NCBI GenBank assembly: GCA_041661265.1
Contig: JBAZUT010000001.1
Span: 1,854 to 65,853, forward strand
From: Minisyncoccota bacterium
GTDB lineage: Bacteria; Patescibacteriota; Minisyncoccia; JAHIHE01; JAGLIN01
Length of the DNA: 64,000 nt
Direction: 5' to 3'
Below the pieces are notes generated by a model. That model was not told the DNA's origin, ran no database searches, and saw only the letters and a list, made by a program, of their open reading frames with translations. Positions 1 to 63,741 of this stretch are shown here, piece after piece. The first letter of the stretch is position 1. Each line of letters starts with the position of its first letter. Made by a program: the position numbers and the translations under genes.

Positions 1-3000
1 GAAGGATTGGTCGATTCTTTATTAATGAAGCTTAGAGGAAGAGTGTCTGACGCTTCATAGGCAACCGAAAGAAGGACGCTTCCGCTCGAATCCGTTCCTG
101 AAAAAACGAGAGATGCGGTATTATCGGTTATCTCCACGACATCATCATTTAAACTATGCGAAGCGGGACTTGATCCTCTTGCAATGCCGGATATTGTATC
201 GGCAGTATTATTCTTGGACGTATAGGAAATGTGCTCATCCCCTATCTGGATCGTGCCCGAGCTTCCCATAAGATCGGTTGAGGTGAGAGAAATATCCGAA
301 GTACTGGAATTATCAAGAGCCTGATTCAATTTGATGCCATAGGCTATCGTCGGATCGGTCGTATCTGTCTGGTCTCCGGCAGTCTCAAATTGGAGATATG
401 GAGAAACATTCGGATAGGTTTTTGTGTTGGGAGTTGCAGCAGCATCCGCAGAGACGACCTGATAGTTATAGAACCTTCCGGAGGCCAGATTGGCATCAAT
501 AATGACATAATGTTCGGTAACTTTCTCGGTCTGCGTTGCTGTTGAAAATCCGGTTGCGGGATCCACAGTAAAATCATCCAGTGTGGATTCAACGTATTTC
601 ACTTGTGAAGTGGAAGCCTCGTCCGTCCTCCAATAGACAGTGGCATTGGTTCTCCCCGGAGTGACCGTAGGACCCAATGTTATGCTTGGCTCTTGGATAT
701 CCGGAACCTGAGCATTGGTTGTAAAAGTGTGATATGGATCGGTCGGAGGATTGAGGGGATGCTCCATGAGATTTCCCGCGCCATCCGCGGAAAGCACCTG
801 GTATTCATAAGCTGAATCCGATGTCAGGCTGGATAAAGCGACTGTGTGCAGATAGTCCGAACCGGGAGTAACCTCCGTTACAAAAGCAGCATCGTCTTTG
901 TTTACGGAGCCGGCAATGGAAAATTCAGCCGCACCGATTCTGTATTTAACCAGAGAATATGATCTTTCATTTGTGTTCCAAGTGATCGTGGCCGAGTTTG
1001 TCGATCCGGAGCTTACGCCATCCGGAGCGGGACCGGAGATCAGAACCGGCTTCGTGCTGTCCGGATCAGTGGAAGTGCCGAACTGCAAAAAGGGAGCGGC
1101 GGAAGGAGAGGTTGCAGTGTTCGGCGTTGCGGCATTATCGGAAAATATCACCTGATAATTATAGAACTTGCCGGAGGAAAGATTGGTGTTTATTATCACA
1201 TAATGCTCGGTAACTTTTTCAGTTTGCAGGGCCGTAGAGAATCCTCCTGCGGGATCAACCGTAAAATCATTTTCGGTCGATTCGATATAGTTTACCATGG
1301 AATCCGATACCTCATTCGTCTGCCAATAGATAGTGGCAGTATCTCTTCCCGGAACAACGGTGGGTCCCGAAGTCACAGAAGGAGAAGTGCTTGTGGTAGA
1401 AAAAGTATAATAGGGATCGGTCGGAGGATTATTGGGACTCTTCATAAGAAGGCCCGCCGCGTCCGCAGAAAGAACCTGATATTCATATTGCGTTCCCTCT
1501 GCAAGTCCCGTGATATCGACCGTATGGCTGAAATTGACCGAACTGATCTCCTGCACGAAATTGACATCATCCTTATCGACTGAGCCTGCAATAAAGAAAG
1601 GAGAAGTTCCTGCTTTTCTGTATTTCACGATGGAATATGATCTTTCATCCGTATACCAAGTTATTCTTGCAGAAGTATTGCTATTATTCGAATCAACAGG
1701 AAGAGGAGAAATGAGGCGCGGAGGAGTCGTGTCTCCGATTGGCGTCTCTCCGATGCTGGATCCGTCGGGTCGGGCGGAAACTACCGAGGAATATATGGAA
1801 ATGCCGTCGGCATCTTCGGCAGTTACTCTGTAGTAATAGTCAGTCGTGCTGTTTAAGGTTCCGGGAGTGGCGCTGTCCGCGCAATTTCCGTCTCCCTCGT
1901 CGTAGCAATAATTGGTTGAGCCGCTATTGATCGTGACAAAGGGAGACAACCCATAGTCGGCGCCATCGGTAGAGCGCCACACGTTATATTTGGTCGCACC
2001 CGACACTATCTCCCACCAGACAACAAGGCTGTAATCGGAATTAGGAACAACTGTTATGTCGGACTTGTTCATCCCTTTCGGATTGGCGGGTATGGTCACA
2101 AACTTTATCGTCGGATTTTCGTTATTGAAATTATCCTTGGCCTGAAAGCATACAGTAGCTATATTGGTTGCATCAAAAGAAAGAGTCCAGACTCTGGTGG
2201 CGGAAATAGCTTCCCAGCCGGTAGCGGAAGGATCGCTGGCAAGATCGGTGGCACAAGTTGAACCATCGATATTGGAAGCATTGGCGAAGCGGACATATTT
2301 CGTGGAGCTCTCAGTGAGAGAGATATCCGTAAGCTTATACCCCGAAGCATTGGCATTGATCTTGAAAGGAGGAGTCGCATAGACCGGTATCACGGTATCC
2401 ACGGCAAAATTGGAGCTATCCGCTGTTCCGACCTGCCCCCCTCCGTTTGCATCGTTCAAAGCTATGCGGACTTTGACATTACTCAGATATATTCTTGAGT
2501 TGAGATCAGACGCCGGATCAAGAGTAAGACCGGAAGTGACAATGGGGTTTTCCGTGTATGAAACTCCAGTGACATCCCCTTTTACGGTTGCGCTCAGAGC
2601 ATAGACCCATACTGTGGTCGGGACCGTCTCATGGGCTACGGCAAGGGTTGTATATCCCACTTCCGGCCACTTGCCCCTTCCCGTTGTCACAGTAAGAACG
2701 CCTCCACTATTAGAATCATAGTATATCACCTCGTCCTCGATCATAATGTATCCGGAAGTTTTTAGAACCGAATTGGGATCGCTCACGCTGACATTGCCTG
2801 AAGCCAGAACTCCGGCAGTCGTTGTAACTCCGGCATCATAGAAATATTGGATATTGACAGTACCTCCATCCTTGTCTCCGGGCGAGTCGGATAGTCCCGA
2901 TTCCTCAAAATCAGAGATCTGATAAGAACCGACTACGATCTTTCCAATGTTGCTCGGACTTGCATCGCTGTTCTGGCTCGCAGTGATCGTGTTTTTCACG

Positions 3001-6000
3001 CAATCTCCGGTCACATCATCAGTAACCCCGACACAAGGCGGAGTGTTTCTTACATAGAGGACGGAAGCATCGGAAAGCACCGGAGTTTGAGACCCGTCAG
3101 TCGATTCCAGCCAAGCCTTATATTGCATCCACTGATCATTCGCACCTGCGCTCTGGGTCGAATTTATGGTTTCTCCGGATGAAGTTGTTTCGTAATAGGT
3201 CTGCGTTCCTCCTCCGCCGTCGCAGTTCGTCGCGTCCCCCGGACCGCACCAGGATGCCGTTGTGAGCCCCGCCTTGGATGCTGCAGTCCTGATCCTGAAT
3301 TTGAGATTCGTTCCCGCCGGTTTCTCTCCGAGATTTCCCGACTGAGCATTCCAGGAAAAAGTATTGAGCATGGAAGCGGGGCTTCCTGTATCATAAGGAG
3401 AAGAAACCAGAGTCTGAGGAGACACACCGGTATCGGGATAGTGAGTATAGTAAACCTTGAGATCGGAGAAAGTGGGTGTCGATACGCCATCGGAAGAGGT
3501 CATGGTTACTTCATATTGAAAATAGCGATGGCCGGCAACCATGGAGCTCAGAGCGCTCAATGCTGAGCTGCTGGCGCCAGCGGTCATAGCAATGCTCTGA
3601 GCAATACCGCTAAAAGCGGTTTCGCCTGAACAGGCAGAATCGTCGCAAGAGCGGACTTTGACGGTCATTCCGGTATTCGAAGGAATAGCTGTAGCCGCCG
3701 ACCACTCGGCAAGACCCCAAGAAAGATCTTTCTGTCCGGTATCGATGATCTGGGAAGTGAAAGTGCCGGAAGAATAATATCCTATGGAAGTAGAATAATA
3801 ATTTGGTGTCGGTATGGTACCGCTAAAAGAACCGTATTTAGCATATGTTCTTCCTTCACCGCCATTCCCACCGGAATAACTACCTGTTCCTCCGCCTGCT
3901 CCGCCTACGCCGCCATTAGCGCCTATACTACCGCTATCAGTGATATTTTGAGCTGTAATAATCAAAGAACCGCCTGCGCCTGCTCCGCCACCACCACCTT
4001 TATCCAAAGAAGAAACAGCCGCATTACCTCCATTATTTCCATTGGAATTTATTGAACTACCGGCAGAAATTACTAAATTATTAGAATAAATTACAACTAC
4101 TCCTCCGCCTTTACCGCCTGCTCCACCAGATGAAGCGGCCCAAGCACAACCACCCGCTCCTGCACCACCAGCCCCGCCACCACCGCCAAAATATGCGCGC
4201 GTATTTAGTGTTGAGGAACCAGCGCCGCTAGCAGTTCTTCCATCATTTCCACCACCACCACCACCACCACCCACAATATTACCACCACTACTGCCACCTG
4301 TCCCGCCATTGGAATTTGAACCAACGGATCCAGTACTAAAACCAGCCCCACCACTACCTGGAGAACCGTTACCACCTCCTCCTCCACCGCCGCCTTTTGA
4401 AGAGTTACTTCCTGAAGTAGCCACACCGCCACCGCCACCGCCATTCCCTAAAGTTCCATCCCCGCCTACTCGCGTTCCACTCCAAACAGAACCACCGCCG
4501 CCGCCGCCACCATTGAGACTATTACCCGTGCTAGCACACAAGCCTCCGCTTCCTCCGGTGCCATTATAAGATTCGCCTCCAGCTGACCCGCTAGCAGCAC
4601 TAGCCGCGGCCGCTCCACTAAAACCTAAACCATTGGCATTAATCCCATTAGCTGCACCTACCGTGACCGTACCAGTTGCCCGAAAAGCCAACACTCCGCC
4701 TTTAGTGCCGTTCCAGGCTGTCGAAATAAGCGATGCTCCGGAACTAATCGTGACATCCGTATAATTCGGAACACGCTGAACCATTGTCTTCTGTGTCGTA
4801 CTATCGCCAAATGTATAGCTAAGAGCGGAGTCTAAGGTAAGCGTGTTGGTATTAATGGCAGTTATCGTCCTAAACTCGTAATTACCAGTGTTACTATAAT
4901 CGCTGGACGTCCCCTTGAGGTTTATGATCATTATTTCATCATTAACAGCCAGGCCTGTTGGCGTTGAAGACAGCGTAACGGTTGTTGCCCCCGAGTTGAT
5001 CGTCCCAGTTGTGGAAAAATTAACCGCACTCAGAACCGTGTTCAGCGATGAAACGACCAATGCGCCATCCGCGCCATCTCCTGATCCATAATCATAATTT
5101 AATTTTATATCATTTGCATTCACTGTCACATTATTCCAGGTGCTCTCATAATAAATCTTCACTTCGCTTAAAGTCGGGGTCGCGCTGAGATCGGTTTTAG
5201 AATTCAAAGTAGCTCTATATTGAATATATCGTTTATTGTTTAAATTATAAAGGGAACCTCCGTTTGTCACCGATGCAAATGATCCGTCTGAGCAATTGGA
5301 ATTGGCGCAAGATCGCACTTCCATTGTGACCGACGATCCGCCTCCGACAGTTGAGCTGTTGTCGGTCCATGCAATTTTTCCAAAATTCTGATTCACACCC
5401 ATATCAAATATGCGGGAAGTGAAAGTGCCGGATGAATTGTATAACAAAGATGCGGCATAATAATTCGGACTCGGCGCCGTACCGCTGATGGAAGCATATT
5501 TAGCATAGGTTCTTCCTCCTCCTCCCGCCCCTCCCGCATAGCCCGATGTGATGGTCCCGCCACTACCGCCATTGGACGTGATGCTTCCGCTATTACTCAG
5601 GTTTGGCGTAAGAATAATAATTGATCCGCCAGCTCCGCCACCGCCGCCGCCTGAATACTGTTGAGAATTAATTGTGCCATTTGTGCCATTTGTGCCATTT
5701 GCAGAAATAGAAAAACCTGTCGGAATCGTAATTTGCCGGGCAAAAATTGCTATAATTCCTCCTCCTTTTCCCCCTCCTCCACCGTTTATCCCGCCGCCTG
5801 CACAAGTTGTAGAATTTTGACGTGCGCCTCCTCCAGCCGCGCCGCCGCCGCCAAAAATCGCTTTCCTGTAAAGATTAGACGAACCGGTACCATCCGCGGT
5901 TAAACCATCATTGCCGCCGCCGCCGCCGCCGCCGCCTAATGCATAAGTTGCGCTATTTCCTCCACCGCCGCCATTAAGAACTCCTCCGTCAACACCATTA

Positions 6001-7238
6001 TTTCCGCCATATCCCAAAGATCCAGCTGAACCTCCTCCTCCTCCTCCTCCTCCGCCGCCCTTTGTGGTACTTGAAGAGCCTCTTAGTGCGCCGCCGCCGC
6101 CGCCGCCGCCAACACCGGCGAGTCCGCCTGCTCCTATATATAAAGTACCATAAACACCTCCCCCTCCTCCACCACCCTGTCCGGAATTTCCATCAGTAAG
6201 AGAAGTCCCCCCGCTTCCTCCCGTGCCGTTATACGACTCGCCGCCTCCCGCATTTACACCGCAATTTCCTCCGGCTCCTCCCGCAAAGCCTAAAGCATTG
6301 GCATTGATCCCATTGGCAGCATTTACTGTTACTGTTCCAGTCGATCTAAAAGCCAATACGCCCCCCTTGGTGCCATCCCAGGTCGAGGGGATGAGAGATG
6401 CGCCGGAATTGATCGTAACATCAGTATAATTCGGCACCCGCTGAACCATTATTTTTTGCGTGGTACTGTCGCCATAGGTATAGCTAAGCGCGGAATTTAA
6501 AGTGAGAGTGTTGGTATTTATCGCAGTTATCGTTTTAAATTCATAATTACCCGCATTGCCAGAATCCGCAGAAGTACCCTTAAGATTGATTATTATGATC
6601 TCATCATTAACAGCCAGGCCTGTTGGCGTTGCAGATAAAGTGACAGCAGTCGCTCCGGCGCTGATCGTACCAGTGGTGGAAAAATTAACTGCACTCAGAA
6701 CCGTGTTCAACGATGAAACGACCAATGCGCCATCCGCGCCAGTGCCGCCGCCATAATCATAGTCAAGCTTTACGCCGCTCAAAATTTGCACCTTGCCAGA
6801 CTCCGGAGTTCCTAAATTAAAATTCTCATCAGTCGAATCGGTGGAAAGAGCGGACTTTCCGTTAAATTGCGTATCCGCGGTTTCTTCCACGTTTTCGCTT
6901 ACGACAGAAAGCTTCAATACTTTATCTTCATTAGGCTGGCCCGAGTTGAGGACGATCGAATCGATGGAGTCCTTGCTCTCATAGGTAGCCCATCCTGTTT
7001 TGTTGGAAGCATGAGTCGGATAGCAGACCGAGCCGTCCCACGTTCCATTGACCGCAGTGCATTCTCCGGCATTGGCGGGAGGAGCTATGTCCCAGCCCGC
7101 CTGTATCCATGAATTCGTGGCCGCCCTTCCGCTTGGCTTGCCGGGCATAAAAAAATACAGCACGGAACTCGTGACTATCGTGCTTACCAGGATCATAATA
7201 AAAGCGGTCTTGCTTAGAAATCTGACTTTTCTTTCCAT
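1..7238 (-). CDS. giant secreted/cell-surface protein, 3'-truncated by window edge (>2400 aa): N-terminal signal anchor, two ~560-aa tandem units (beta-rich domain + ~300-aa Gly-rich tract + Cys-containing domain), then repeated FN3-like modules
   Basis: Start ATG at 7236-7238 (rc), protein begins MERKVRFLSKTAFIMILVSTIV. This minus frame stays open to position 1, and no listed minus-strand ORF lies in it. Repeated motifs ITWxTxE...YEYQV and PLNPPTDPYHTF occur twice. Plus-strand poly-Pro ORFs are antisense artifacts of GGN codons. Confidence 0.8.
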   Translation of the reverse strand, partial: MERKVRFLSKTAFIMILVSTIVTSSVLYFFMPGKPSGRAATNSWIQAGWDIAPPANAGECTAVNGTWDGSVCYPTHASNKTGWATYESKDSIDSIVLNSGQPNEDKVLKLSVVSENVEETADTQFNGKSALSTDSTDENFNLGTPESGKVQILSGVKLDYDYGGGTGADGALVVSSLNTVLSAVNFSTTGTISAGATAVTLSATPTGLAVNDEIIIINLKGTSADSGNAGNYEFKTITAINTNTLTLNSALSYTYGDSTTQKIMVQRVPNYTDVTINSGASLIPSTWDGTKGGVLAFRSTGTVTVNAANGINANALGFAGGAGGNCGVNAGGGESYNGTGGSGGTSLTDGNSGQGGGGGGGVYGTLYIGAGGLAGVGGGGGGGALRGSSSTTKGGGGGGGGGGSAGSLGYGGNNGVDGGVLNGGGGGNSATYALGGGGGGGGNDGLTADGTGSSNLYRKAIFGGGGAAGGGARQNSTTCAGGGINGGGGGKGGGIIAIFARQITIPTGFSISANGTNGTNGTINSQQYSGGGGGGAGGSIIILTPNLSNSGSITSNGGSGGTITSGYAGGAGGGGRTYAKYASISGTAPSPNYYAASLLYNSSGTFTSRIFDMGVNQNFGKIAWTDNSSTVGGGSSVTMEVRSCANSNCSDGSFASVTNGGSLYNLNNKRYIQYRATLNSKTDLSATPTLSEVKIYYESTWNNVTVNANDIKLNYDYGSGDGADGALVVSSLNTVLSAVNFSTTGTINSGATTVTLSSTPTGLAVNDEIMIINLKGTSSDYSNTGNYEFRTITAINTNTLTLDSALSYTFGDSTTQKTMVQRVPNYTDVTISSGASLISTAWNGTKGGVLAFRATGTVTVGAANGINANGLGFSGAAAASAASGSAGGESYNGTGGSGGLCASTGNSLNGGGGGGGSVWSGTRVGGDGTLGNGGGGGGVATSGSNSSKGGGGGGGGNGSPGSGGAGFSTGSVGSNSNGGTGGSSGGNIVGGGGGGGGNDGRTASGAGSSTLNTRAYFGGGGGAGGAGAGGCAWAASSGGAGGKGGGVVVIYSNNLVISAGSSINSNGNNGGNAAVSSLDKGGGGGAGAGGSLIITAQNITDSGSIGANGGVGGAGGGTGSYSGGNGGEGRTYAKYGSFSGTIPTPNYYSTSIGYYSSGTFTSQIIDTGQKDLSWGLAEWSAATAIPSNTGMTVKVRSCDDSACSGETAFSGIAQSIAMTAGASSSALSALSSMVAGHRYFQYEVTMTSSDGVSTPTFSDLKVYYTHYPDTGVSPQTLVSSPYDTGSPASMLNTFSWNAQSGNLGEKPAGTNLKFRIRTAASKAGLTTASWCGPGDATNCDGGGGTQTYYETTSSGETINSTQSAGANDQWMQYKAWLESTDGSQTPVLSDASVLYVRNTPPCVGVTDDVTGDCVKNTITASQNSDASPSNIGKIVVGSYQISDFEESGLSDSPGDKDGGTVNIQYFYDAGVTTTAGVLASGNVSVSDPNSVLKTSGYIMIEDEVIYYDSNSGGVLTVTTGRGKWPEVGYTTLAVAHETVPTTVWVYALSATVKGDVTGVSYTENPIVTSGLTLDPASDLNSRIYLSNVKVRIALNDANGGGQVGTADSSNFAVDTVIPVYATPPFKINANASGYKLTDISLTESSTKYVRFANASNIDGSTCATDLASDPSATGWEAISATRVWTLSFDATNIATVCFQAKDNFNNENPTIKFVTIPANPKGMNKSDITVVPNSDYSLVVWWEIVSGATKYNVWRSTDGADYGLSPFVTINSGSTNYCYDEGDGNCADSATPGTLNSTTDYYYRVTAEDADGISIYSSVVSARPDGSSIGETPIGDTTPPRLISPLPVDSNNSNTSARITWYTDERSYSIVKYRKAGTSPFFIAGSVDKDDVNFVQEISSVNFSHTVDITGLAEGTQYEYQVLSADAAGLLMKSPNNPPTDPYYTFSTTSTSPSVTSGPTVVPGRDTATIYWQTNEVSDSMVNYIESTENDFTVDPAGGFSTALQTEKVTEHYVIINTNLSSGKFYNYQVIFSDNAATPNTATSPSAAPFLQFGTSTDPDSTKPVLISGPAPDGVSSGSTNSATITWNTNERSYSLVKYRIGAAEFSIAGSVNKDDAAFVTEVTPGSDYLHTVALSSLTSDSAYEYQVLSADGAGNLMEHPLNPPTDPYHTFTTNAQVPDIQEPSITLGPTVTPGRTNATVYWRTDEASTSQVKYVESTLDDFTVDPATGFSTATQTEKVTEHYVIIDANLASGRFYNYQVVSADAAATPNTKTYPNVSPYLQFETAGDQTDTTDPTIAYGIKLNQALDNSSTSDISLTSTDLMGSSGTIQIGDEHISYTSKNNTADTISGIARGSSPASHSLNDDVVEITDNTASLVFSGTDSSGSVLLSVAYEASDTLPLSFINKESTNP
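3430..6790 (-). repeat. intragenic tandem duplication (~1680-bp period, two units) inside the giant surface-protein gene, with stretches of near-identical nucleotide sequence
   Basis: For example 4720-5080 vs 6400-6760 share long identical runs (cagccaggcctgttggcgttg; gtggaaaaattaac.gcactcagaaccgtgttca.cgatgaaacgaccaatgcgccatccgcgcca). The two protein units align over ~560 aa. Confidence 0.7.
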
Positions 7239-7695
7239 CTTTTTATATTGACAGAAAGAATTATTACAGAATATCACCGATTCTTTTCCAAGCTTGGAAA
7301 AGATGAGAAAATTTTCTGCGCTATCGCCAAAAAGAAGGCAGATAAATCTTACAACCAACCTTGCAGCCTCCAGAGAGTATAGCTTCAGAGAGTCAAAAAA
7401 CATCAGAACTTTGTTCCCTTCTGTTTTCGACTGCTCTATTTCCTTCCTGATCCTGTCTGTGAGCAATATTATCTTTTCATACAAAGCAAGAAGCCTCATT
7501 TTTTTGTTTTGTTATATGCACCTCAGGAATAACAATTAGCTCTATTTATTAACTACAATATATCAGCAAGAAGATGCCTTCTGTTTTTTTTATTTGGGTA
7601 ACTCATAATAGAATTATACAATAAATTGCAAAATATAACAAATAGGCGTGCTAGTCCACCTCATATTGCATCAAGTAACCAGGTGCAAAGACATA

Positions 7696-8181
7696 TCATG
7701 CAAGCGACTCATCTATTTTTTTGGCCCAATCCATGGCCTTTTTCGCATTTTCATCCTTGTTTTTCAGAACATCGACAAAATCCGCCTCACCGATAAATTC
7801 ATTCCCTTTCAGTTCTTTTTTCATATCTTCCAGCGCTCTTTTCATCCCTCCGCTATGAGAGCAGAACGGTGCTATTTTCTTTCCGGAAAGTTTTGCTTTC
7901 GAAAAAAAAGTTCCGATGGGAGGAGAGAACGTGAAAGACCAGACAGGAGTGCCGATAATGATCGCATCATAATCGCCGGGATCCACGGAGAAAGGAAAAA
8001 GTTCCGGCTTTTCCTTCATGAACACCTGCCTTCCTCCCCAAAAATATTTCATAAATCCATTTGCGGAGATCTCCTTTTTCGGTTTCAGTTCCATGACATC
8101 TGCGCCAAGCGCTTTTGCAACAGCTTCCGCGATGAATTTGGTGTTACCCTCAAGCGAATAATAGACTACCAGTTTTTTCAT
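7696..8181 (-). CDS. flavodoxin-family protein
   Basis: MKKLVVYYSLEGNTKFIAEAVAKALG...AIIIGTPVWSF flavodoxin-like fold signature. The overlapping plus ORF 7648-8499 is low-complexity antisense. Confidence 0.65.
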   Translation of the reverse strand: MKKLVVYYSLEGNTKFIAEAVAKALGADVMELKPKKEISANGFMKYFWGGRQVFMKEKPELFPFSVDPGDYDAIIIGTPVWSFTFSPPIGTFFSKAKLSGKKIAPFCSHSGGMKRALEDMKKELKGNEFIGEADFVDVLKNKDENAKKAMDWAKKIDESLA

Positions 8182-8301
8182 ATTTTTTCATTATGGATTA
8201 TTAAAGCCACCGCGCGACGGCTGATCGCTGCCTGCATTTATTATAACACAAAACGCATCAAAATTGATGCGTCAAATCCAAAGTCCCAAGAAACACGATC
8301 C

Positions 8302-8526
8302 CTAGAACAACTTATCAAAATCTCTCGAATATTTTCCCATTTTTTCGATCATTATATCCACGATCCCGCTCTTGTAGATCTTGTCCTTATATGCCACAGT
8401 CAATGCCAGAACCGCAAGAAGAATAAAAACCATAACTATAAGCAGGTCCCTTTTCTTGTTCAAGTTTTTTCTTATCAGCATTGGCATGTCTCTATTTGAA
8501 AAATAAAGAATTGATGTGCTTGGCAA
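8302..8526 (-). CDS. small membrane protein (hypothetical), between TetR and flavodoxin genes
   Basis: 74 aa with one predicted TM helix (LLIVMVFILLAVLALTVAY), co-directional and overlapping the TetR stop. Confidence 0.3.
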   Translation of the reverse strand: MPSTSILYFSNRDMPMLIRKNLNKKRDLLIVMVFILLAVLALTVAYKDKIYKSGIVDIMIEKMGKYSRDFDKLF

Positions 8527-9079
8527 TATCTTTCGATTTCAGGTTCTTTCCACCGTCCAAAATCTCTCCAAGAACGAACGTGTTGAGCATTCCAATAAGA
8601 AGATGAGTCGCCATGTTGCTCGAGATGGAATCTTTTTTTCTGAGAACGAGAACGTCCTTGACTATGGGCTCGAATTGGCCCGCTATCTCATCCTTTTTTC
8701 TGGAAATAAAATCCACGATATTCTCATCTTCCTTGGCATATTTCTCATTCGTAAGCTTTGCAAGGTCTTTTTCCTCAAGGCAAAAATCCACATAGGAAGT
8801 TATCGCCTTGCAAAATTTTTTCTGGACCGAGAAATCCCCTTCGCTTATCTTTTTTATCATGCCGGAAAATTCGCTGAAGGCTCCGTCGATCACTTCCAAA
8901 TAAAGCTTCTCCTTGCTTGGAAAATGATAATAAAGCGCGGCCTTGGTCATCTCGAGAGACTTTGCGATATCCGACATCGAAACCCCGAGATAGCCGAACT
9001 TCGAAAACAGCTTTTCCGCCACATCGACTATGAGGTTTTTCGTCGGCGACGACTCTAGTTTTTCCGAATTAGGATCCAT
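8492..9079 (-). CDS. TetR/AcrR-family transcriptional regulator
   Basis: N-terminal HTH KNLIVDVAEKLFSKFGYLGVSMSDIAKSLEMTKAALYYHFPSKEKLY. Confidence 0.8.
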   Translation of the reverse strand: MDPNSEKLESSPTKNLIVDVAEKLFSKFGYLGVSMSDIAKSLEMTKAALYYHFPSKEKLYLEVIDGAFSEFSGMIKKISEGDFSVQKKFCKAITSYVDFCLEEKDLAKLTNEKYAKEDENIVDFISRKKDEIAGQFEPIVKDVLVLRKKDSISSNMATHLLIGMLNTFVLGEILDGGKNLKSKDIAKHINSLFFK

Positions 9080-9395
9080 ATATGTAAATTTCTTATTACC
9101 AAAAAAAGGGAGATCGGAGAATTTTATTATTCTCTCATTCTACTTCCGGCACGTTTGCCTTCTCCATCTCCGCAATTCTGCGTTCTACTACTCCCATAAA
9201 TTCTTGCTGCGTCCTGGCTGCTTTTACTTCCGGCTCATTGAAGAACTCGGACATTTCTGCAACCAACGTTGTGAATCTGTCTATTCCTTGGAACATTTCT
9301 TTCCTCTTTTTTTGTTTTACTTACTTACCGTTCGGTAAGTAGCTATTATCATCGTACACCCCGGACATTATCTGTCAAGGCAAAATATGAGTGAA

Positions 9396-9833
9396 TTATT
9401 CGAATTTCTTGTAAAAAAAGCCATTAAGATAGCATTCTATGCTTCTTTCGCTTGCATCAAAATGGGGCATGGGAATGTTCTTTGGGTCCGCCCAGATCCA
9501 TCCCTCGCATTTCTCGGGTTCCATGATCCGTGGTTCTCCTGAGAAATCTTTAGCCAGAAGGACAACGGAAATATAGTGCACTCCTTCGTTCCTGTATGTT
9601 TTCAAATTATTCGTTACGGCGATCACTTCCGGATGCGAGATATCCATTCCGGTCTCTTCCTTGATCTCCCGAATGGCGCAATCCTCGAACGTTTCCCCGG
9701 CCTCAAGCCGCCCTCCGGGGATCGAAAAGAACGGCGCATGGCTCCCCTTTCTTTTCCCAAAAAGAACGTTTCCATCTTTGTTGATTATAATGACGCCAAT
9801 GCCGACGCCGGGCCTCGGTTTATCTTTTTTCAT
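9396..9833 (-). CDS. NUDIX hydrolase
   Basis: Nudix box GGRLEAGETFEDCAIREIKEETGMDI. Start moved to the internal ATG (MKKDKPRPGV) at 9831-9833. Confidence 0.75.
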   Translation of the reverse strand: MKKDKPRPGVGIGVIIINKDGNVLFGKRKGSHAPFFSIPGGRLEAGETFEDCAIREIKEETGMDISHPEVIAVTNNLKTYRNEGVHYISVVLLAKDFSGEPRIMEPEKCEGWIWADPKNIPMPHFDASERSIECYLNGFFYKKFE

Positions 9834-10059
9834 AATAAAAAAGTTACGATTTATTATTGTCCATAAAGGATATGCTTTAATATTATCAAAGTTCCGGCTT
9901 TGTTTCAAATTACCGCCGGAAATAAGGATCACATCCGCATTGTAATACTATTACGGCATGTTCCGTCTTTACCTTGAGTGGATAAGATCAGCATTTACGG
10001 AATGCCTGAATCATCGATAGATGCTATAATCATATCATTGCCGAAAGATAAAAATAAAT

Positions 10060-11370
10060 ATGAACGCAATGGCGCAAAAAAACACAGCGTGGATGGTGAT
10101 TTTGTTCATGACAATTCTGCCTGTTTTGAGATGGGCCCAGATCTCCCCCCTGGAATACAGATTCCTGGATTTTGGCGCGACCATGGGAAGTGCCGGACAA
10201 ATTACTGCGCTCATGGGCATGGTCTTGTTTTCCATAAATCTCATTCTCTCCGGAAGGTTCAAGGTTCTCGATAGATCCATGCACGGACTTGTTGATGTTT
10301 ACAACAAGCACCACATCGTCGGCGCGATCTCCTTTTCCCTACTCTTGTTCCATCCCCTGTTTCTGGCTCTGAGATTTATGCCCATATCTCTCCGGGAGGC
10401 GGCGCTATTCCTTCTTCCCGGTCAGAACCAGGCTATAAACTACGGCATAATCTCGCTCCTCCTTTTTATCCTGCTTATAGTATTCACTTTTTTTGCCTCT
10501 CTAGGATACAAGCGCTGGAAAATTTCGCACACCTTTATGATCCTGGTCGCTTTCTTCGCGATCCTGCATTCATTCAGGACGACAAGCGATGTATCACGGG
10601 ATCCATTGTTGAGATCTTATATATTAGGATTGGCTTTCATTGGGTTTGCTTCTGCGTTCTATCAGGCATTTCTCAGCAAATTCATCCGGAAAAAATATAT
10701 TTACGTCGTGGAAAAAGTATCCAAAGTCGGTCCGGGGATCGTCGAGATCGAAATGTCTCCGAAGAACAGACGGATGACCTTTGAAGCGGGACAATTCATT
10801 TTCATCCGTTTTTCAAGCAAGATCGTCGGAAACGAGGTCCACCCGTTCTCCATTTCTTCGGGAGAGGACGATCCGAATTTGTCCGTATCGATAAAATCAC
10901 TTGGAGATTTCACAAAAAATGCCGCCGGCATCGAGATCGGAAGCGAGGCGGCGATCGAAGGACCATATGGCAAATTTTCACGCAGGAATTCTGCGAGCAA
11001 AGATCAGATCTGGGTGGCGGGCGGGATCGGCATCACTCCGTTCCTCAGCATGGCGAGAAGCCTGAAGGATGACGATTATAGGATAGATCTTTTCTACAGC
11101 GTGAAAAGCGTTGAGGAGGCGGCATTTCTGAACGAACTCGAAGAGATCTCAAGGTCTCATCCCGGATTCAAAGTGATAAGCTGGATCTCCAACGACAAAG
11201 GATTCCTCAGCTGCAACGCGATCTCGGAAATAAGCCTGAATTTTTCGGATAAAGACATATTTCTCTGCGGCCCCCCTGTTTTCATGGAATGCATCCATGC
11301 TCAGCTTATTGGCCTTGACATTCCGGAATCAAGGATCCACTGGGAAATTTTTAATTTTTCTCCAAAATAA
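10060..11370 (+). CDS. ferric-reductase/NOX-like membrane flavocytochrome (bis-heme TM domain + FAD- and NAD(P)H-binding domains)
   Basis: Paired His in TM helices (HHIVGAISFSLLLFHP; ILHSF), HPFSISS FAD motif, GGIGITP and CGPP NAD-binding motifs. Confidence 0.75.
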   Translation: MNAMAQKNTAWMVILFMTILPVLRWAQISPLEYRFLDFGATMGSAGQITALMGMVLFSINLILSGRFKVLDRSMHGLVDVYNKHHIVGAISFSLLLFHPLFLALRFMPISLREAALFLLPGQNQAINYGIISLLLFILLIVFTFFASLGYKRWKISHTFMILVAFFAILHSFRTTSDVSRDPLLRSYILGLAFIGFASAFYQAFLSKFIRKKYIYVVEKVSKVGPGIVEIEMSPKNRRMTFEAGQFIFIRFSSKIVGNEVHPFSISSGEDDPNLSVSIKSLGDFTKNAAGIEIGSEAAIEGPYGKFSRRNSASKDQIWVAGGIGITPFLSMARSLKDDDYRIDLFYSVKSVEEAAFLNELEEISRSHPGFKVISWISNDKGFLSCNAISEISLNFSDKDIFLCGPPVFMECIHAQLIGLDIPESRIHWEIFNFSPK

Positions 11371-11374
11371 AACT

Positions 11375-12226
11375 ATGAAAAAATTAGTAGGCGTTTCGCT
11401 CTTTGTTTTTTGGGCATTTGTTGCGGCGATCCTGACCGCAGGACTTGTCTTTTATCAGAACAATAAAAATTCTCCGGCTGGAAATTCCGTCCTCCCCTCC
11501 GGAGCAAGCGACCCGGTCCAGGAAGAACAAATAACGCTTGATGCGGCCGAGATCGCAAAACACGGATCGACCCAGGACTGCTGGCTTCTGATAAACAGCA
11601 AAGTTTACAATGTTACAACCTATCTTGGAACCCATGCGGGCGGAGTGGCGACCATCGCTCCCTATTGCGGAAAGGAAGCGACCCAGGCCTTTGCCACAAA
11701 AGAGACGGGATCCTCCCATTCTTCATATGCGAATGAGCTTCTTGCTTCGTATTACGTCGGAGATCTGAATCAAAAGATCGGCGCGCCTCAACCCGGACAG
11801 AATACGCAAAACGCGAACACGCCTCCCCCGCCGCAACCAAATCCCTCCGCCGCAGATCCGGCTCCGAAACCTCCGCCGCCCCCGGTCAGTCAGACGTCTC
11901 TCAATGCCGCCGAGATCGCAAAGCATAATTCAACGGGCGACTGCTGGATAATTATCAGCAGCAAAGTGTACAACGTCACAAGCTATCTTCAAGCGCATCC
12001 GGGCGGAGTCGGAACAATCTCTCCTTATTGCGGACAAGATGCAACCCAGGCATTCCAGGGAAAAGGGCATTCTTCTTATGCAGACAGCCTGCTTGCTTCA
12101 TATTACATCGGATCATTGAATCAGACCGTTGACACTCCCGTAATACAGCAGAATGTCCAAAACACCAACAACACTCCTCCTCCGATCAACATACGAGGAG
12201 ACGATGACGATGACAATGACGATTAA
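11375..12226 (+). CDS. secreted/membrane-anchored protein with two cytochrome b5-like heme-binding domains and Pro-rich linkers
   Basis: Two copies of DCW(L/I)(L/I)I(N/S)SKVYNVT.YL..H.GGV cyt b5 signature (HPGG). N-terminal signal/TM MKKLVGVSLFVFWAFVAAIL. Starts 4 nt after the upstream stop. Confidence 0.75.
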   Translation: MKKLVGVSLFVFWAFVAAILTAGLVFYQNNKNSPAGNSVLPSGASDPVQEEQITLDAAEIAKHGSTQDCWLLINSKVYNVTTYLGTHAGGVATIAPYCGKEATQAFATKETGSSHSSYANELLASYYVGDLNQKIGAPQPGQNTQNANTPPPPQPNPSAADPAPKPPPPPVSQTSLNAAEIAKHNSTGDCWIIISSKVYNVTSYLQAHPGGVGTISPYCGQDATQAFQGKGHSSYADSLLASYYIGSLNQTVDTPVIQQNVQNTNNTPPPINIRGDDDDDNDD

Positions 12227-14476: not shown

Positions 14477-15046
14477 TTAATAAATAATATTCGTATTCGG
14501 GAGAAGCCGTTTCAATTCATTGACGCTGTCCAGGGAATATTTATTATTCGATATGTCCAAGGTCTTAAGATTGTCTTTGAGATTTGCGATCTCATTTGGA
14601 AAAGTATCAAGACCGTTATAGGAATAATTCAGCGTGGAAAGATTCTTGAGTTGTCCGATCTCCGCCGGAATGCCGGTCATGCTGTTATATTGGACATCCA
14701 GGATCCTCAAATTGGACATTTTCCTTATTTCCCCGGCAAGCGATCCCTGAAGTTCATTGTGATCGAGATACAGCTCCTCGATGTTCGAAAGCCCGCCGAT
14801 CTCGGAAGGCAACGACCGGAGTTTGTTGTTGGAAAGAACGAGCTTCGTCACCTGGGTCTGGCTCAGTGTTTCTTTCGGGATCGAGGTTAGATCCTTTCCG
14901 CTTAAATTTATTTCCTTCGCGCCGCCGACACCGGGAATATTCGGAATGATACTGGCTGGAGTTGTCCGCATTGTCCCCAAAAGATATGCAGAAGCAACAA
15001 CCAGAATGGCGGCGACCGCGATCAGCAAGATCGATGTTTTTGTCAT
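14477..15046 (-). CDS. leucine-rich-repeat (LRR) protein with N-terminal signal anchor
   Basis: Repeated LxxLxLxxNxL units (LVLSNNKLRSLPSEIGGLSNIEELYLDHNELQGSL...). Confidence 0.75.
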   Translation of the reverse strand: MTKTSILLIAVAAILVVASAYLLGTMRTTPASIIPNIPGVGGAKEINLSGKDLTSIPKETLSQTQVTKLVLSNNKLRSLPSEIGGLSNIEELYLDHNELQGSLAGEIRKMSNLRILDVQYNSMTGIPAEIGQLKNLSTLNYSYNGLDTFPNEIANLKDNLKTLDISNNKYSLDSVNELKRLLPNTNIIY

Positions 15047-28999: not shown

Positions 29000-31156
29000 T
29001 TATTCAAACAAAACCTTACGAAGTCTTATCAATTCTTCTTTTGTCAAGTCACCCAGATTCTTGACTTCCAATTTGACTCCTTCAGCAAATTCTTTTTGCC
29101 TTAACTCCGACGTTGTTTTCTCTATAGTATTTTTGAATTCCGCCGGAGACTCATATGCTTTTTTGGCTAATTCTCTTGCCTCTTTTTTCCCTACATATCT
29201 ATATCCTATCTTTAGAGTACCTTGTACTACTGGTGCCGAAAATGCAATAAACTCAAGATACTCCAAATCAATATAATATACCGTTTGGTTCAATACATTA
29301 TCTGGAATATTTCCTTTTATTAAAACGGAACTTAAGTTTACTGAATTCTCATCTTTAACACTATACTCATAACTAAGGCTATAGTTATATTGAGGATAGG
29401 ATAGCCTGCTAAGAAGATACATAGGTTTACCGTCATATAAAATTGTTTTATTGAAAGTATAAACTTCGGTCTCAATACCTTTATTTAGTATGTATTTATC
29501 CTTAATACTCTCGTACTGGACTATAGCTGCTTCCCAGCTATCCGAAGTTACATTCCTTTTCAATTTTATATCCTTGTTTTCAAGGATGTAATTCAAGCAA
29601 GACGAAACCTTCCAAGTCTCTGGCTGTGAATCAACGCCCGAAAGAGTACAGGCATTTCCTTTTATTACCAATGTCATTTCCTCATTCAAACTGTACATTC
29701 TCGAATTAGGTACTGACAATATAGGTTTTGATTCTTCAATTTTCTCCAGCTTTACATCGTCGATATAATATATATCTCCTGCCGCTGCTTGGGACGCAAG
29801 CCAGAACATTAAGCGTCCGTCATTTACCGCACCGGTAAAACCGGTTGTGGTAAATTCAGTCGTAAATGTCTGCCAGCCAGTGCCAAGATTAACATAATAA
29901 TCCGGCATATAAGGAGTATATGGCGATGCGTGCTTGATCAGCCTAACCTTTATATTTCGACCTACATTCGAGTAAGCCGCAAAGGTCAACCGATATCGCG
30001 TATTCGATTCCAATACTACTCCAGCTTGATACAACTGGATATTTGAACTGTTGCCGGTAATTGCAAGCTTTGCAACATTTCCCGTAACGTTGGAAGGCTC
30101 AATACTGAAAGTTCCTGCTTTTTTTGCATAAAATATCCAGGGCAATGTTCCTGATTCAAACCCGCTGTCGCCAATAATATTTACTGGGGTTGGTTCCGGG
30201 GTTAGTTCTGGCGTGGGTTCCGGAGTCGGTTCCGGAGTCGGTTCCGGCGTGGGTTCTGGAGTTGGTTTTTCGAGCTCAAAAGTTATCCTCCTATCCGCAT
30301 CGGAATAAAAGGAATAGGAATCACTTGGCGTGATATTCTGTAGTTTATTTGCCCATGCCCATTCCGGATTATCCATAGCAGGATCGTAGAATATCCATGC
30401 GCTATTGGACCAATTATAATGCCAGACTATTACTCCTGTAAGATTTTTAAAAATCTTTGTGCTGGTTACACCTGATTCTTTCGGTGCTTGCCAAACATTT
30501 CCATCTGGCACTCCGGTAGCAAGGTTCAATGTTACAGACCATGGCTGGACCGGAGTAATTACCGGTTCAGGAGTTACTTCGGGGGTTGGTGCCGGAGTTG
30601 AAACTGCCGTAGGAGCTACGGTTGGCTCCGGAGTTGCTACGGGCTTTTCTTCTAAAGTGACGAATACATCAGAACTACTGAAATCAACTCTTTTTGTTTG
30701 AGTTCTATATTCCGAACTTTCAAAAACAAGTAATTTACCAGTATCTCCTTGGCAAACCTCAACCTTAAACGGAGTAGTGCCTATCCAGCCTACATTAAAC
30801 TCAGTTATATCAATTCCTGACGGACTGGATGAAATTACCAGATATTTGCACTGCGAATACGCAATCGGTGTATCTGAAATAATTATATCCGCAAAGGAGT
30901 TTGTAACTCTTTTGACTGTTATATAAATATGCCCGTGAGCCGTATTTATTGCCCCTTCCTGGTAAAATACATCTTCTCCTGAAATGGTTAATGTAACCAA
31001 ACACCTTTCTCCGCATCCGAAATCTTTTACCACAACATCATATCCCGGATACTGATCTCCTTTGTGCATTTCCACTGCACCAACTGTCGATGGTGCCATC
31101 AGAAGCACCATTGCGGCAAATATTATTGCCCTTACTATGTCTCCATTTCTATTCAT
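29000..31156 (-). CDS. large secreted protein with (PTPE)n linkers (hypothetical surface protein)
   Basis: N-terminal signal peptide. PTPEPTPEPTPEPTPEPTPELTPEPTP linker encoded by 12-nt tandem repeats at ~30180-30265. Confidence 0.7.
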   Translation of the reverse strand: MNRNGDIVRAIIFAAMVLLMAPSTVGAVEMHKGDQYPGYDVVVKDFGCGERCLVTLTISGEDVFYQEGAINTAHGHIYITVKRVTNSFADIIISDTPIAYSQCKYLVISSSPSGIDITEFNVGWIGTTPFKVEVCQGDTGKLLVFESSEYRTQTKRVDFSSSDVFVTLEEKPVATPEPTVAPTAVSTPAPTPEVTPEPVITPVQPWSVTLNLATGVPDGNVWQAPKESGVTSTKIFKNLTGVIVWHYNWSNSAWIFYDPAMDNPEWAWANKLQNITPSDSYSFYSDADRRITFELEKPTPEPTPEPTPEPTPEPTPELTPEPTPVNIIGDSGFESGTLPWIFYAKKAGTFSIEPSNVTGNVAKLAITGNSSNIQLYQAGVVLESNTRYRLTFAAYSNVGRNIKVRLIKHASPYTPYMPDYYVNLGTGWQTFTTEFTTTGFTGAVNDGRLMFWLASQAAAGDIYYIDDVKLEKIEESKPILSVPNSRMYSLNEEMTLVIKGNACTLSGVDSQPETWKVSSCLNYILENKDIKLKRNVTSDSWEAAIVQYESIKDKYILNKGIETEVYTFNKTILYDGKPMYLLSRLSYPQYNYSLSYEYSVKDENSVNLSSVLIKGNIPDNVLNQTVYYIDLEYLEFIAFSAPVVQGTLKIGYRYVGKKEARELAKKAYESPAEFKNTIEKTTSELRQKEFAEGVKLEVKNLGDLTKEELIRLRKVLFE

Positions 31157-34500: not shown

Positions 34501-36207
34501 TTAGATTGTTTCCGCATTATCCAATCGATTGAATAAATGTGATAAAAGACTTAATGCGTCTAGACAATCTTGTTCCGTATATAAGCCAGACTGTCTCAAA
34601 TCTTCAGCAGTTTCGTGCGCCTTTGGATTTCTAAAAGCCATCCACATCGCACGAGCCAATAGACCATGTCCTTTGGAAATGTTTTCCAATGTAAGTGGCT
34701 TAAAATCTGTACCATCGGGCCGTTTATACTTTTTTGTTACAGATAATATTGGTAGAACAGGAGGCAGAGGCGGGTTTTGTGGTTTCGGCTGATCCGGTGA
34801 AAAAGCTTCTTTAATCAATCTAAGATCAACATTACTGGATGCGGTTTTAGCTTTAATCTGATTAACATATTCAGTCACACCCTCCAGTACGGCACCATAA
34901 TAATCGCTATTTTTATAATAATTAAAGACAATTTTTTTTAAAACTGGATGCAAATTGCGCCAGTGAAAGTACGGATATGGTTTAATTATATTTTGAAGAC
35001 CCTTTAAACTGCTTACAAGCTTTTCTTCTGTCATCTCAGAATCTTTCAATAAAGCACCGATGATAGGATCAAGATCTTCTCTAATATTTTCAGGTATATG
35101 ATTTCGCCACTCACCAATACTCATGCCAGTTTTATTTTCTGCCTCTTTTGATCTTATTTCTGCTCTTCTTTTACGCCAATCTTGTTCCAGCCAATTAATA
35201 ACTTTTCTTAAATAATCTCTTAATTTTAACATTTCCGGATGACCCCAATTTAAAGATTTTCGATCTGTAGCTATAACGTCTTCATCAAGATCATCAATAA
35301 AATCTACTTCCAGCCAACCAGTCAAATACGAAAAGAAATGACTTGACATGCTTTCAGAAAAATACTCCGGTAAATTTACCAATTTTTTCCTAGAAAATAA
35401 AGTAACTCCACGCATATTAGTTTTTGGTGAAATCGGCGTTTCTGTCGCAATAAGATATCCAGTAACTTTATTTTTTTCTGAATAATCTGATTCGAGTTTA
35501 ATTTCTTTTGGAACGTCCCACTCAACTTCTTTTTTTAAATCCGCATACTTCTTCTCGTTTTCAACAAAAAAAGGGTTTTCTTCATTATACTGGATAGAAA
35601 CTTTAAAAGTATTATCTACAATAAAGATTTTTGACAATGCAACAGCAAGAGCTGACGAATCAAATTCGGTTTGACGATGAAGTCCACGAAGGATAATTGT
35701 TGTACCATTTTTAGCATCGCAAGGTTCATCAATCTTTATAAGTTGCGGATGATATTCAGCGGTTTTAGATTCTTTTATGTCTTGCCATCGAAGAATAAAA
35801 ACGTTCATTTTTAAATTCTTCTTCGTAATCACTTCAATCTCCTCAGCAATCCCAAAAAATGATAACTTCCCTATGCCCTTTTTCCCTATTACTTTTCTCC
35901 CTCCTGTAATACTTTCTACTTCTTCCTCATCTCGTCTATTACGACCGATACGAAGAAATTTACTATTGATTTCTTCGAGATTCATTCCAATACCATTATC
36001 TTTGACAGCAATTTCCCGTTTTCCGTATTTATCATATAGAAAAACAGTCACGTCTGAGGCATTAGCATCATAAGAATTTGCTACCAACTCAGCGAGAACC
36101 GGTGGTAACGTTGAGTACATTCGAACGCCAAGATGTTCAATCGTCGCCGGATCAAATGTCATTTTTAAAATATCCTTTTCTTGATCATTTTGATTCATAA
36201 TTTTCAA
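34501..36207 (-). CDS. GHKL/MORC-like ATPase (HATPase_c_3-type) with C-terminal HEPN-like Rx4H motif; uncharacterised defense-associated protein
   Basis: Bergerat-fold motifs ELVANSYDA (N-box), DNGIGM (G1), GKKGIGKLS (G2). C-terminal FRNPKAHE (Rx4H) at 34612-34635. Overlaps the dcm stop by 23 nt, 5 nt upstream of vsr. Confidence 0.75.
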   Translation of the reverse strand: MKIMNQNDQEKDILKMTFDPATIEHLGVRMYSTLPPVLAELVANSYDANASDVTVFLYDKYGKREIAVKDNGIGMNLEEINSKFLRIGRNRRDEEEVESITGGRKVIGKKGIGKLSFFGIAEEIEVITKKNLKMNVFILRWQDIKESKTAEYHPQLIKIDEPCDAKNGTTIILRGLHRQTEFDSSALAVALSKIFIVDNTFKVSIQYNEENPFFVENEKKYADLKKEVEWDVPKEIKLESDYSEKNKVTGYLIATETPISPKTNMRGVTLFSRKKLVNLPEYFSESMSSHFFSYLTGWLEVDFIDDLDEDVIATDRKSLNWGHPEMLKLRDYLRKVINWLEQDWRKRRAEIRSKEAENKTGMSIGEWRNHIPENIREDLDPIIGALLKDSEMTEEKLVSSLKGLQNIIKPYPYFHWRNLHPVLKKIVFNYYKNSDYYGAVLEGVTEYVNQIKAKTASSNVDLRLIKEAFSPDQPKPQNPPLPPVLPILSVTKKYKRPDGTDFKPLTLENISKGHGLLARAMWMAFRNPKAHETAEDLRQSGLYTEQDCLDALSLLSHLFNRLDNAETI

Positions 36208-37243: not shown

Positions 37244-37246
37244 ATA

Positions 37247-63690: not shown

Positions 63691-63741
63691 CGGTCTACCG
63701 CCTTTCCAAGGCGGCGCACTCGACCACTATGCGACCTCTCC
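63652..63741 (-). tRNA. tRNA-Ser (anticodon GGA), type II with long variable arm, encoded CCA
   Basis: GGAGAGG acceptor, 3-bp D stem, anticodon loop TTGGAAA, T-arm GAGGG-TTCGACT-CCCTC, 3' CCTCTCC-G-CCA. Confidence 0.9.

Follow-up and report, generated by a model that had tools for sequence, protein, structure and literature searches.

Epibiotic Patescibacteria need multiple protein adhesins, and genetic work in Saccharibacteria has found several of them to be essential (PMC10633639). Phage proteins are among the described systems to which the protein discussed here can be compared. In the LKA1 tailspike gp49, a beta-helix is interrupted by a six-stranded insertion barrel, which contributes Arg329 to the active site, and is followed by a C-terminal jellyroll; among the structural neighbors reported for this barrel are the P22 I-domain and the V-ATPase barrel (PMC5701251). 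The glycine-rich domains of S16 gp38, Pam3 gp24 and ALK are about 39% Gly, carry GGGGxGG motifs and fold into polyglycine-II lattices whose variable tips bind the receptor, Pam3 gp24 itself having 39% Gly and conserved GGGGxGG motifs (PMC9608196). Here we consider a giant gene at the beginning of a 64,000-nt stretch of DNA (GenBank assembly GCA_041661265.1, contig JBAZUT010000001.1, positions 1,854 to 65,853 of the forward strand), which was analyzed at its full length and is called the window below. Its product, which comes from an uncultured Candidatus Paceibacterota bacterium (Patescibacteria, Candidate Phyla Radiation or CPR), has at least 3117 residues, is still incomplete and is predicted to be a giant surface protein anchored in the membrane. 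The explanation that best accounts for the whole, and to which we assign a probability of roughly 55%, is that two tailspike-like cassettes would bind a surface glycan of a host or partner cell and that an array of fibronectin type III (FN3) domains would serve as their stalk.

A preliminary description of this locus, made from the sequence alone, had recognized a giant truncated protein whose frame runs uninterrupted to the window start, and this reading stands. The minus-strand frame from 7238 to 1, checked for internal stops, comprises 2412 codons without a stop, and from an upstream ATG at 7499 there are 2499 stop-free codons before the gene leaves the window at position 1. The translation of 1..7499 (minus strand, as for all features of this gene) is 100% identical to residues 1-2499 of a protein already deposited at NCBI, MFA6095992.1 (3117 residues; P0001 below), under the name 'MAG: fibronectin type III domain-containing protein, partial [Candidatus Paceibacterota bacterium]'. 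Relative to the Met codon at 7238, the deposited protein starts 87 residues earlier, and it continues 618 residues beyond the window start; the record stops at the contig end without a stop codon, and the C-terminus is absent from it. An open frame this long cannot have arisen by chance. The plus-strand open reading frame (ORF) at 4309-4569, set aside earlier as a poly-Pro antisense artifact, is indeed the antisense of GGN codons. Residues of the units, Cys pairs and repeats are numbered below from the Met at 7238.

That Met had been taken as the gene start, which does not agree with the evidence upstream of it. The frame remains open to ATG 7499, the NCBI start call, with an in-frame stop four codons beyond that ATG. 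The additional 87 codons (7239..7499) are conserved at the protein level in the closest full-length relative and syntenic orthologue, P0006 (2478 residues, JGI metagenome 3300009538, locus L079), to which identity is 66% over P0001 residues 1-140; over the extension, pN is 0.23 and pS 0.81 (saturated; all pN, pS, dN and dS values, the nonsynonymous and synonymous differences and substitutions per site, are Nei-Gojobori estimates). This excess of pS over pN argues that the extension is translated and under purifying selection, and because these codons are constrained in the orthologue, ATG 7499 rather than 7238 is probably the start of the giant gene. A consensus scan found a sigma-70-like promoter match (TTGTTA, 17-nt spacer, TATAAT; 10/12) at 7613..7641 on the minus strand, upstream of ATG 7499 and directly after a terminator-like hairpin (7661-7644) that trails the flavodoxin gene, and no minus-strand promoter match between 7499 and 7238; the promoter position points weakly to the same start. 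The extension has no Pfam match. The hydrophobic stretch, which had been placed at the start codon as a signal anchor, is instead an internal anchor behind this probable upstream part. It forms the sole predicted transmembrane helix, TAFIMILVSTIVTSSVLYFFM (7140..7208), preceded by the basic stretch KKMERKVRFLSK; the Kyte-Doolittle scan, a transmembrane prediction having been proposed earlier, gave it as the only 19-residue window with a mean above 1.6 among the 3117 residues. Since basic residues precede the helix (positive-inside rule), the predicted topology is a membrane anchor with the N-terminus inside, a cytoplasmic head of ~95 residues and an ectodomain of ~3000 residues, the 87-codon extension probably being part of the small cytoplasmic domain. 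Behind the helix lies a juxtamembrane region of ~120 residues (6774..7139; Cys 60/72) that is conserved in P0006 and matches no family. Six Cys pairs, 60/72, 644/649, 1198/1203, 1331/1339, 1402/1413 and 1778/1786, are all short-range, which fits an extracellular location.

Self-comparison places two tandem units of ~555 residues at residues 156-710 (6773-5109) and 711-1265 (5108-3444), within about 20 nt of the ~560-residue units noticed earlier, and each contains the beta-rich domain, Gly-rich segment and Cys-containing domain (with a CxxxxC pair) that had been described. Unit 1 begins with an N-domain (6258..6773) assigned as a six-stranded beta-barrel with flanking beta-helix rungs from its AlphaFold2 model, Foldseek and profile matches and an NCBIfam match. 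It continues with a Gly-rich segment (5484..6278; 265 residues, 41% Gly) that has ~12 conserved Gly runs and regular hydrophobic strands in its last three coils, and ends in a predicted beta-sandwich (5109..5483; Cys 644/649, CxxxxC) whose modeled strands reach a predicted local distance difference test score (pLDDT) of 66-90 and which is 34% identical to its counterpart in unit 2. In unit 2, the N-domain (4593..5108) is 81-84% identical to that of unit 1 at the amino acid level; a composition count gives a Gly-rich segment of 265 residues and 40% Gly (3819..4613), and sequence comparison a C-terminal sandwich (3444..3818; Cys 1198/1203, CxxxxC).

The preliminary description had interpreted these units as a recent duplication, or one under ongoing concerted evolution, with long near-identical nucleotide runs; the measured divergence supports neither. 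Codon-aligned nucleotide identity between the units is 76-80% over the first 150 codons and 48-65% thereafter, third-position identity is 0.30-0.66, a repeat finder reports 72-76% over the best 139-300-nt stretches, and the longest exact common run is 31 nt. dS is 0.70 in the first 50 codons and about 1.5-1.8 elsewhere, near saturation. dN rises from 0.09 in the N-domain to 0.44 in the Gly-rich segment and 0.59 in the C-domain, with protein identities of 84%, 45-65% and 38%, respectively; because dN differs while dS is similar, we read the uneven divergence as differing constraint acting on one old duplication, not as recent copying. Concerted evolution as a general explanation was rejected, dS being near saturation and lower in the first 50 codons only. 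Those 50 codons (6624-6773 against 4959-5108) combine their dS of 0.70 with one of two exact 31-nt common runs, the other lying just beyond, in codons 48-58 (about 6601-6631 and 4936-4966); they may represent a short gene-conversion tract or chance, a marginal signal from few sites. The P0006 locus has a single unit, and the N-domains of the two window units, 84% identical to each other, are each ~41% identical to that of P0006. The duplication would therefore be lineage-specific, P0006 having one unit that is equally distant from both copies, yet old at silent sites. No paralogue of any module of the giant protein was found elsewhere in the 64-kb window.

Structure prediction, which had been suggested earlier for individual modules, was run on unit 1 and on its N-domain. 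The AlphaFold2 model of unit 1 has a mean pLDDT of 72.4 and a predicted template-modeling score (pTM) of 0.72, and is confident at unit residues 10-170, 310-430 and 430-545; at residues 180-300 it is poor, with pLDDT 43-60. The N-domain modeled alone reaches pLDDT 80.7, residues 310-430 form confident short stacked strands, and residues 430-545 form an all-beta domain with weak Foldseek matches to small sandwiches such as CBM61 (E about 0.15). When the unit and N-domain models were compared to the PDB by Foldseek, phage tailspikes and capsule depolymerases came out on top (4ru4, 4ru5, 4y9v, 7w1c, 7vul and 9k4a; the proteins are phi297 gp61, LKA1 gp49, AP22 gp54, K1 lyase, P560 depolymerase and K64-1 S2-4), with E 6e-8, probability 0.99, template-modeling (TM) score 0.14 and a root-mean-square deviation of about 24 A for the unit, and E 5.5e-7, probability 1.0 and query TM-score (TMq) 0.40 for the N-domain against 4ru4_B. 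Independently of Foldseek, the sequence profile A2 retrieved the P560 depolymerase 7vul_A, weakly, at E 0.0016. Secondary Foldseek neighbors of the N-domain include the P22 coat I-domain, the N-terminal barrels of V-type ATPases and endosialidase barrels. The order of parts in the unit is first rungs, barrel, rungs, long solenoid-like segment and beta-sandwich; the barrel is thus inserted near the start of the beta-helix as in LKA1 gp49, an arrangement moderately supported by models whose TM-scores are below 0.5. Given that the unit has the domain order of gp49, together with the Foldseek and profile matches, each unit reads as a tailspike-like cassette with an unusually Gly-rich helix body. 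PDB sequence searches gave no match for unit 1 or for the middle region that follows the units, and a profile built from A1, an alignment of 17 unit sequences that was also the basis for modeling, returned only low-complexity noise from the PDB.

The likeness has clear bounds. Unlike gp49- and phi297 gp61-type tailspikes and capsule depolymerases, the window protein is cellular, chromosomal and membrane-anchored, carries its cassette twice per chain, has 40% Gly in the helix region and lacks a recognizable catalytic motif. Since there is no PHROGs family match for the giant protein, its neighbors are cellular and its synteny is conserved, the gene is best regarded as not a phage gene, and its product as not a virion component. 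Among predicted viral structures, the best match to the unit model is a PA14-domain protein of Bathycoccus RCC716 virus 1 (E 7e-18, TMq 0.46; 21% identity over 660 columns), followed by Gly-rich Pandoravirus and Orpheovirus proteins. These prasinovirus and giant-virus ('collagen-like') proteins differ in belonging to eukaryotic viruses, and there the comparison is between predictions on both sides.

Taken together, these data suggest the following picture. The cytoplasmic head of ~95 residues and the one transmembrane helix would hold the protein in the membrane, with ~3000 residues outside. The ectodomain would begin with two ~555-residue cassettes, each a barrel set in the first beta-helix rungs, a 40%-Gly solenoid-like segment and a beta-sandwich whose two Cys are of the disulfide type; the receptor-binding and catalytic part of LKA1 gp49-type tailspikes has its domains in this order. 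Beyond them would come a third beta-sandwich, about 350 residues of a middle region, and at least 11 FN3-like domains acting as a spacer or stalk. A lineage-specific tandem duplication would have produced the two cassettes, leaving the barrel nearly unchanged while the Gly-rich and sandwich parts diverged; the cassettes would recognize a surface polysaccharide or another structure of the host or partner cell, and their diverged C-domains may give them different specificities. The glycan-recognition role is drawn from the tailspike analogy and from the need of epibiotic Patescibacteria for several adhesins. As for the earlier suggestion of an adhesin or an S-layer-like component, an adhesin-type role appears the most reasonable, and nothing found supports an S-layer-like one; the single helix, the short-range Cys pairs and the FN3 array fit a giant, modular and mostly extracellular protein.

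Several points weigh against this interpretation. TM-scores reach only 0.14 (whole unit) and 0.40 (N-domain), and the tailspike likeness rests on local 3Di and sequence similarity plus domain order, not on superposition. Half of the Gly-rich segment was modeled at pLDDT 43-60, from an alignment that held only 17 sequences. The tailspikes themselves are trimers. The actual functional tip, or an anchor to the wall, could lie in the missing C-terminus, and both the surface exposure of the protein and its binding are what we infer by analogy.

Several alternatives involve the Gly-rich segments. The ~300-residue polyglycine-like tracts of the preliminary description prove to be 265 residues each, with 40-41% Gly and longest G runs of 10 and 8. 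They contain 10 and 6 GGGGxGG matches, and in Gly content they reach the ~40% typical of polyglycine-II domains; acidic residues are scarce (5-6 Asp plus Glu per segment), and only E179, N359, S384 and R421 are conserved there. Such a composition, shared with the glycine-rich domains of gp38, gp24 and ALK along with conserved Gly and variable residues in between, raises the possibility of a polyglycine-II helix lattice, as in phage S16 gp38, Pam3 gp24 and ALK/LTK, whose variable loop tips would bind; AlphaFold2 is also least sure where the Gly runs are densest. We nevertheless consider this unlikely, as the window segment is twice as long as those domains, its last third is confidently modeled as stacked short strands with regular hydrophobic positions, the unit has no TNF-like platform domain, and neither Foldseek nor sequence searches placed gp38, gp24 or ALK among the top PDB matches. 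Just as unlikely is that the cassettes are enzymes, that is, surface-anchored polysaccharide depolymerases (lyases or hydrolases) cutting a host capsule, S-layer glycan or wall. Catalytic tailspikes and depolymerases do top the structural matches, the LKA1 gp49 barrel supplies an active-site residue, Arg329 (PMC5701251), and invariant polar residues lie in or near the window barrel (D57, E58, Q111, R112 and R143, with E78 and E179 present in at least 80% of sequences); against this, the solenoid is nearly devoid of conserved acidic or basic residues, its glycine face would make a poor substrate groove, and neither Pfam nor NCBIfam gives a match to a glycoside hydrolase, lyase or pectate-lyase family. 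Two further candidates for the segments were dismissed on sequence: RTX calcium-binding repeats (one GGxGxD nonapeptide match per 265-residue segment) and a collagen-like triple helix (longest G-X-Y runs of 3 and 2 triplets, Tandem Repeats Finder reporting only short GGN-codon runs). A passive envelope or S-layer-type structural protein, with the Gly tracts as flexible, disordered linkers, would suit the low-complexity composition, the low AlphaFold2 confidence at unit residues 180-300 and the frequency of giant repetitive proteins in CPR genomes. It is improbable given that Gly runs, their spacing and many single Gly positions stay in register across homologues from different phyla at 36-46% identity, and that the Gly-rich segment has a dN/dS of about 0.25 and always accompanies the barrel domain, the NCBIfam AgmC_N model likewise covering both. 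The conserved register and the low dN/dS argue against disordered spacers and for constrained segments, so that of the two options offered earlier, a beta-helical segment or a flexible spacer, the first is compatible with the models (stacked strands in the second half, tailspikes retrieved) and the second is disfavored.

Two other alternatives concern the identity of the protein and the reality of the gene. A single curated model matches the unit, NCBIfam NF047640 or gliding_AgmC_N (104.2 bits, E 7.5e-30, two stretches), and one could suppose that the giant protein is an AgmC-type motility protein, the gliding-machinery adhesin at the cell surface that is named for AgmC of Myxococcus xanthus; in homologues the model spans both the barrel and the Gly segment. 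Yet the score is far under the curated cut-off of 275 and only positions 25-192 of 412 are matched, the remaining architecture differs, the module occurs across many phyla without gliding, and a literature search yielded nothing on AgmC function, so that a motility role has very little in its favor. The supposition that the gene is an assembly artifact or a decaying pseudogene is hardly credible at all. It draws on the position of a repetitive gene next to a contig end and on the protein being a singleton cluster at 90% identity, known from one metagenome-assembled genome (on a 283,647-bp contig; no second contig carrying the gene was found). It runs against 2499 codons without a stop, dN/dS well below 1 in all segments and a syntenic orthologue in an independent metagenome. 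Collapse or misassembly of the repeat, raised in the preliminary description, is excluded in the same way, since copies that are 48-80% identical at the nucleotide level are too diverged for the two-unit structure to be a repeat-collapse or repeat-expansion artifact.

The tailspike-like module is by no means peculiar to the window. Most of the 112 database relatives of the protein match the unit only, in 1-4 copies, within proteins of 1400-4100 residues from Patescibacteria and Planctomycetota. The A1 alignment contains many invariant Gly residues and ~12 conserved Gly runs spaced 12-27 residues apart (with one gap of 44), and its invariant N-domain residues are D57, E58, Q111, R112, P114 and F142 in unit numbering. 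A profile of the N-domain retrieved 6024 cluster representatives at E <= 1e-3 among 1.84 billion (3986 at E <= 1e-10; the family clusters are 50% identity clusters), in proteins of up to 7697 residues with up to five copies each. Species-representative genomes gave 323 confirmed module stretches, most of them in Patescibacteria, including the cultured Minisyncoccus archaeiphilus, with further hosts among Planctomycetota, Dependentiae, Myxococcota, Bacteroidota, Nitrospirota and DPANN archaea. Several giant surface proteins of Patescibacteria and Planctomycetota (P0002, P0003, P0021 'LamG-like...' and P0058 'glycine-rich domain-containing protein') carry the same ~500-residue module in 1-5 copies, in 1400-7700 residues, and combine it with FN3, LamG, DUF2341 and CarboxypepD_reg; the window protein differs from them in its partner domains. 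Pfam offers no match to any part of the unit or to any other non-FN3 piece of the protein, even at E <= 10.

The relation to AgmC_N is one of distant kinship. The model, which stands for the N-terminal domain of AgmC, an adventurous-gliding protein of Myxococcus, is homologous to the barrel domain of both window units and in other family members spans the barrel and the Gly-rich segment; relatives from Myxococcota, Minisyncoccus and TM6 score 68-133 bits, still below the cut-off, over model positions 24-406. The window unit covers the model only partly and below the cut-off, in a protein of different overall architecture from a different taxon, and we take it to be distantly related to the AgmC N-terminal region but to lie outside that equivalog. 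In M. archaeiphilus PMX.108 (NZ_AP038758.1, locus L069, 454-5883), the only cultured and described patescibacterium among the matches, the module lies in an ORF of at least 1810 residues and scores 133 bits against AgmC_N over the barrel and Gly region; this organism may offer a way into experiments. A Dependentiae homologue with the same barrel and Gly-rich module is found in candidate division TM6 GW2011_GWF2_28_16 (CP011212.1, locus L014, 448-6498), and also has a sub-threshold match to the model of the TafC-family fimbrial protein (170 bits, the cut-off being 410). Literature on giant or Gly-rich CPR proteins and on AgmC contained nothing usable for the module; one 'glycine-rich' match (PMC13622651) concerned a host Esx effector and is irrelevant to it.

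Downstream of the cassettes, a third and more distant copy of the C-domain (residues 1266-1405, 3024..3443; Cys 1331/1339), missed by the preliminary description, aligns with both C1 and C2 over the C-terminal strands (BLASTP E about 2e-6), and such a domain also follows the single unit of P0006. The middle region (residues 1406-1756, about 350 residues; 1971..3023) has no Pfam or PDB sequence match and is covered by only 4-8 homologues. After a classical FN3 domain (1797..1970; Pfam fn3, local hidden Markov model or HMM) come two tandem ~230-residue repeats at 336..1733 (1032-1733 and 336-1061; residues 1836-2069 and 2060-2301), 57-60% identical in self-comparison and with saturated dS (2.35). 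The earlier count of at least two ~230-residue FN3-like repeats is therefore upheld, each being a pair of FN3-like domains of the Pur_ac_phosph_N type (1443-1673, 1119-1340, 765-995 and 426-647; Pfam, local HMM). A sixth FN3-like domain is cut by the window edge after its first part (1..119; local HMM), and five more follow in P0001, for which the local HMM finds 11 in all. Pfam thresholds are passed within the window part by Pur_ac_phosph_N (PF16656; 80.8 bits against 30) and fn3 (PF00041; 40.2 against 25), and over all of P0001 they reach 195.5 and 99.4 bits. A suspected repeat motif of ~50 residues, I-x-I-x-D/E-E-x-I-x-Y (residues 1498 and 2330), was discarded, as BLASTP gave no alignment between its copies.

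P0006 is 26% identical to the giant protein overall, and its gene has TetR, ferric-reductase and Cyt-b5 neighbors in common with the window gene, on account of which we regard it as the positional orthologue. Its architecture includes a DUF2341 domain, one unit and then the extra C-type domain. At L079 11437-12027 the giant gene stops and a separate FN3-like ORF of 154 residues begins 125 nt later, as might result from a frameshift, misassembly or decay of the tail in that genome. The genes beside the window gene form a redox cluster at 7696-12226 (L079 counterpart 489-3697). They encode a flavodoxin (7696-8181, minus strand), TetR (8492-9079, minus strand), a NUDIX protein (9396-9932, minus strand), a ferric-reductase/NOX-like flavoprotein (10060-11370, plus strand) and a double Cyt-b5 protein (11297-12226, plus strand), of which TetR, the flavoprotein and the Cyt-b5 protein are syntenic with L079. 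As listed, the ferric-reductase and Cyt-b5 ORFs overlap by 74 nt, and one of the two starts is probably mis-set.

Elsewhere in the window there are further putative surface or binding proteins, namely a 718-residue protein with a CBM_4_9 carbohydrate-binding module (29000-31156, minus strand) and a small leucine-rich-repeat protein (14477-15046, minus strand). A restriction/defense-like islet of three adjacent minus-strand genes occupies 34501-38083 and encodes a HATPase_c_3 plus Hypoth_Ymh protein (34501-36207), a C-5 cytosine DNA methylase (36185-37243) and an Mrr-type restriction endonuclease (37247-38083). A single RNA gene was detected in the window, tRNA-Ser(GGA) (63652-63741, minus strand).

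How Patescibacteria find and hold their hosts is largely unexplained, and the giant gene exemplifies a very large, uncurated surface-protein family; with ~6,000 clusters and no Pfam model, this family is large and poorly characterized. The tailspike-like reading of the module is the only point of mild novelty here, and the role it implies is a plausible one for what is at present an annotated protein of hypothetical type. If the tailspike-like layout is correct, the module would offer a practical means of predicting host specificity from genome sequences of CPR bacteria, and the differentially diverged cassettes would constitute a small natural experiment in specificity evolution. A broader and more tentative idea, which we hold to be doubtful as yet, is that a cellular lineage has domesticated the phage-tailspike design, and that CPR episymbionts and other small-genome or predatory lineages display chains of Gly-faced cassettes, each a beta-barrel, beta-helix and jellyroll, on a stalk anchored in the membrane as determinants of host range. 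Were that so, the cassettes would bind polysaccharides of the host surface and might also cleave them, duplication followed by divergence of Gly loops and C-domains would create new specificities, and the ~6,000-cluster family would represent a major unrecognized class of cell-cell recognition modules.

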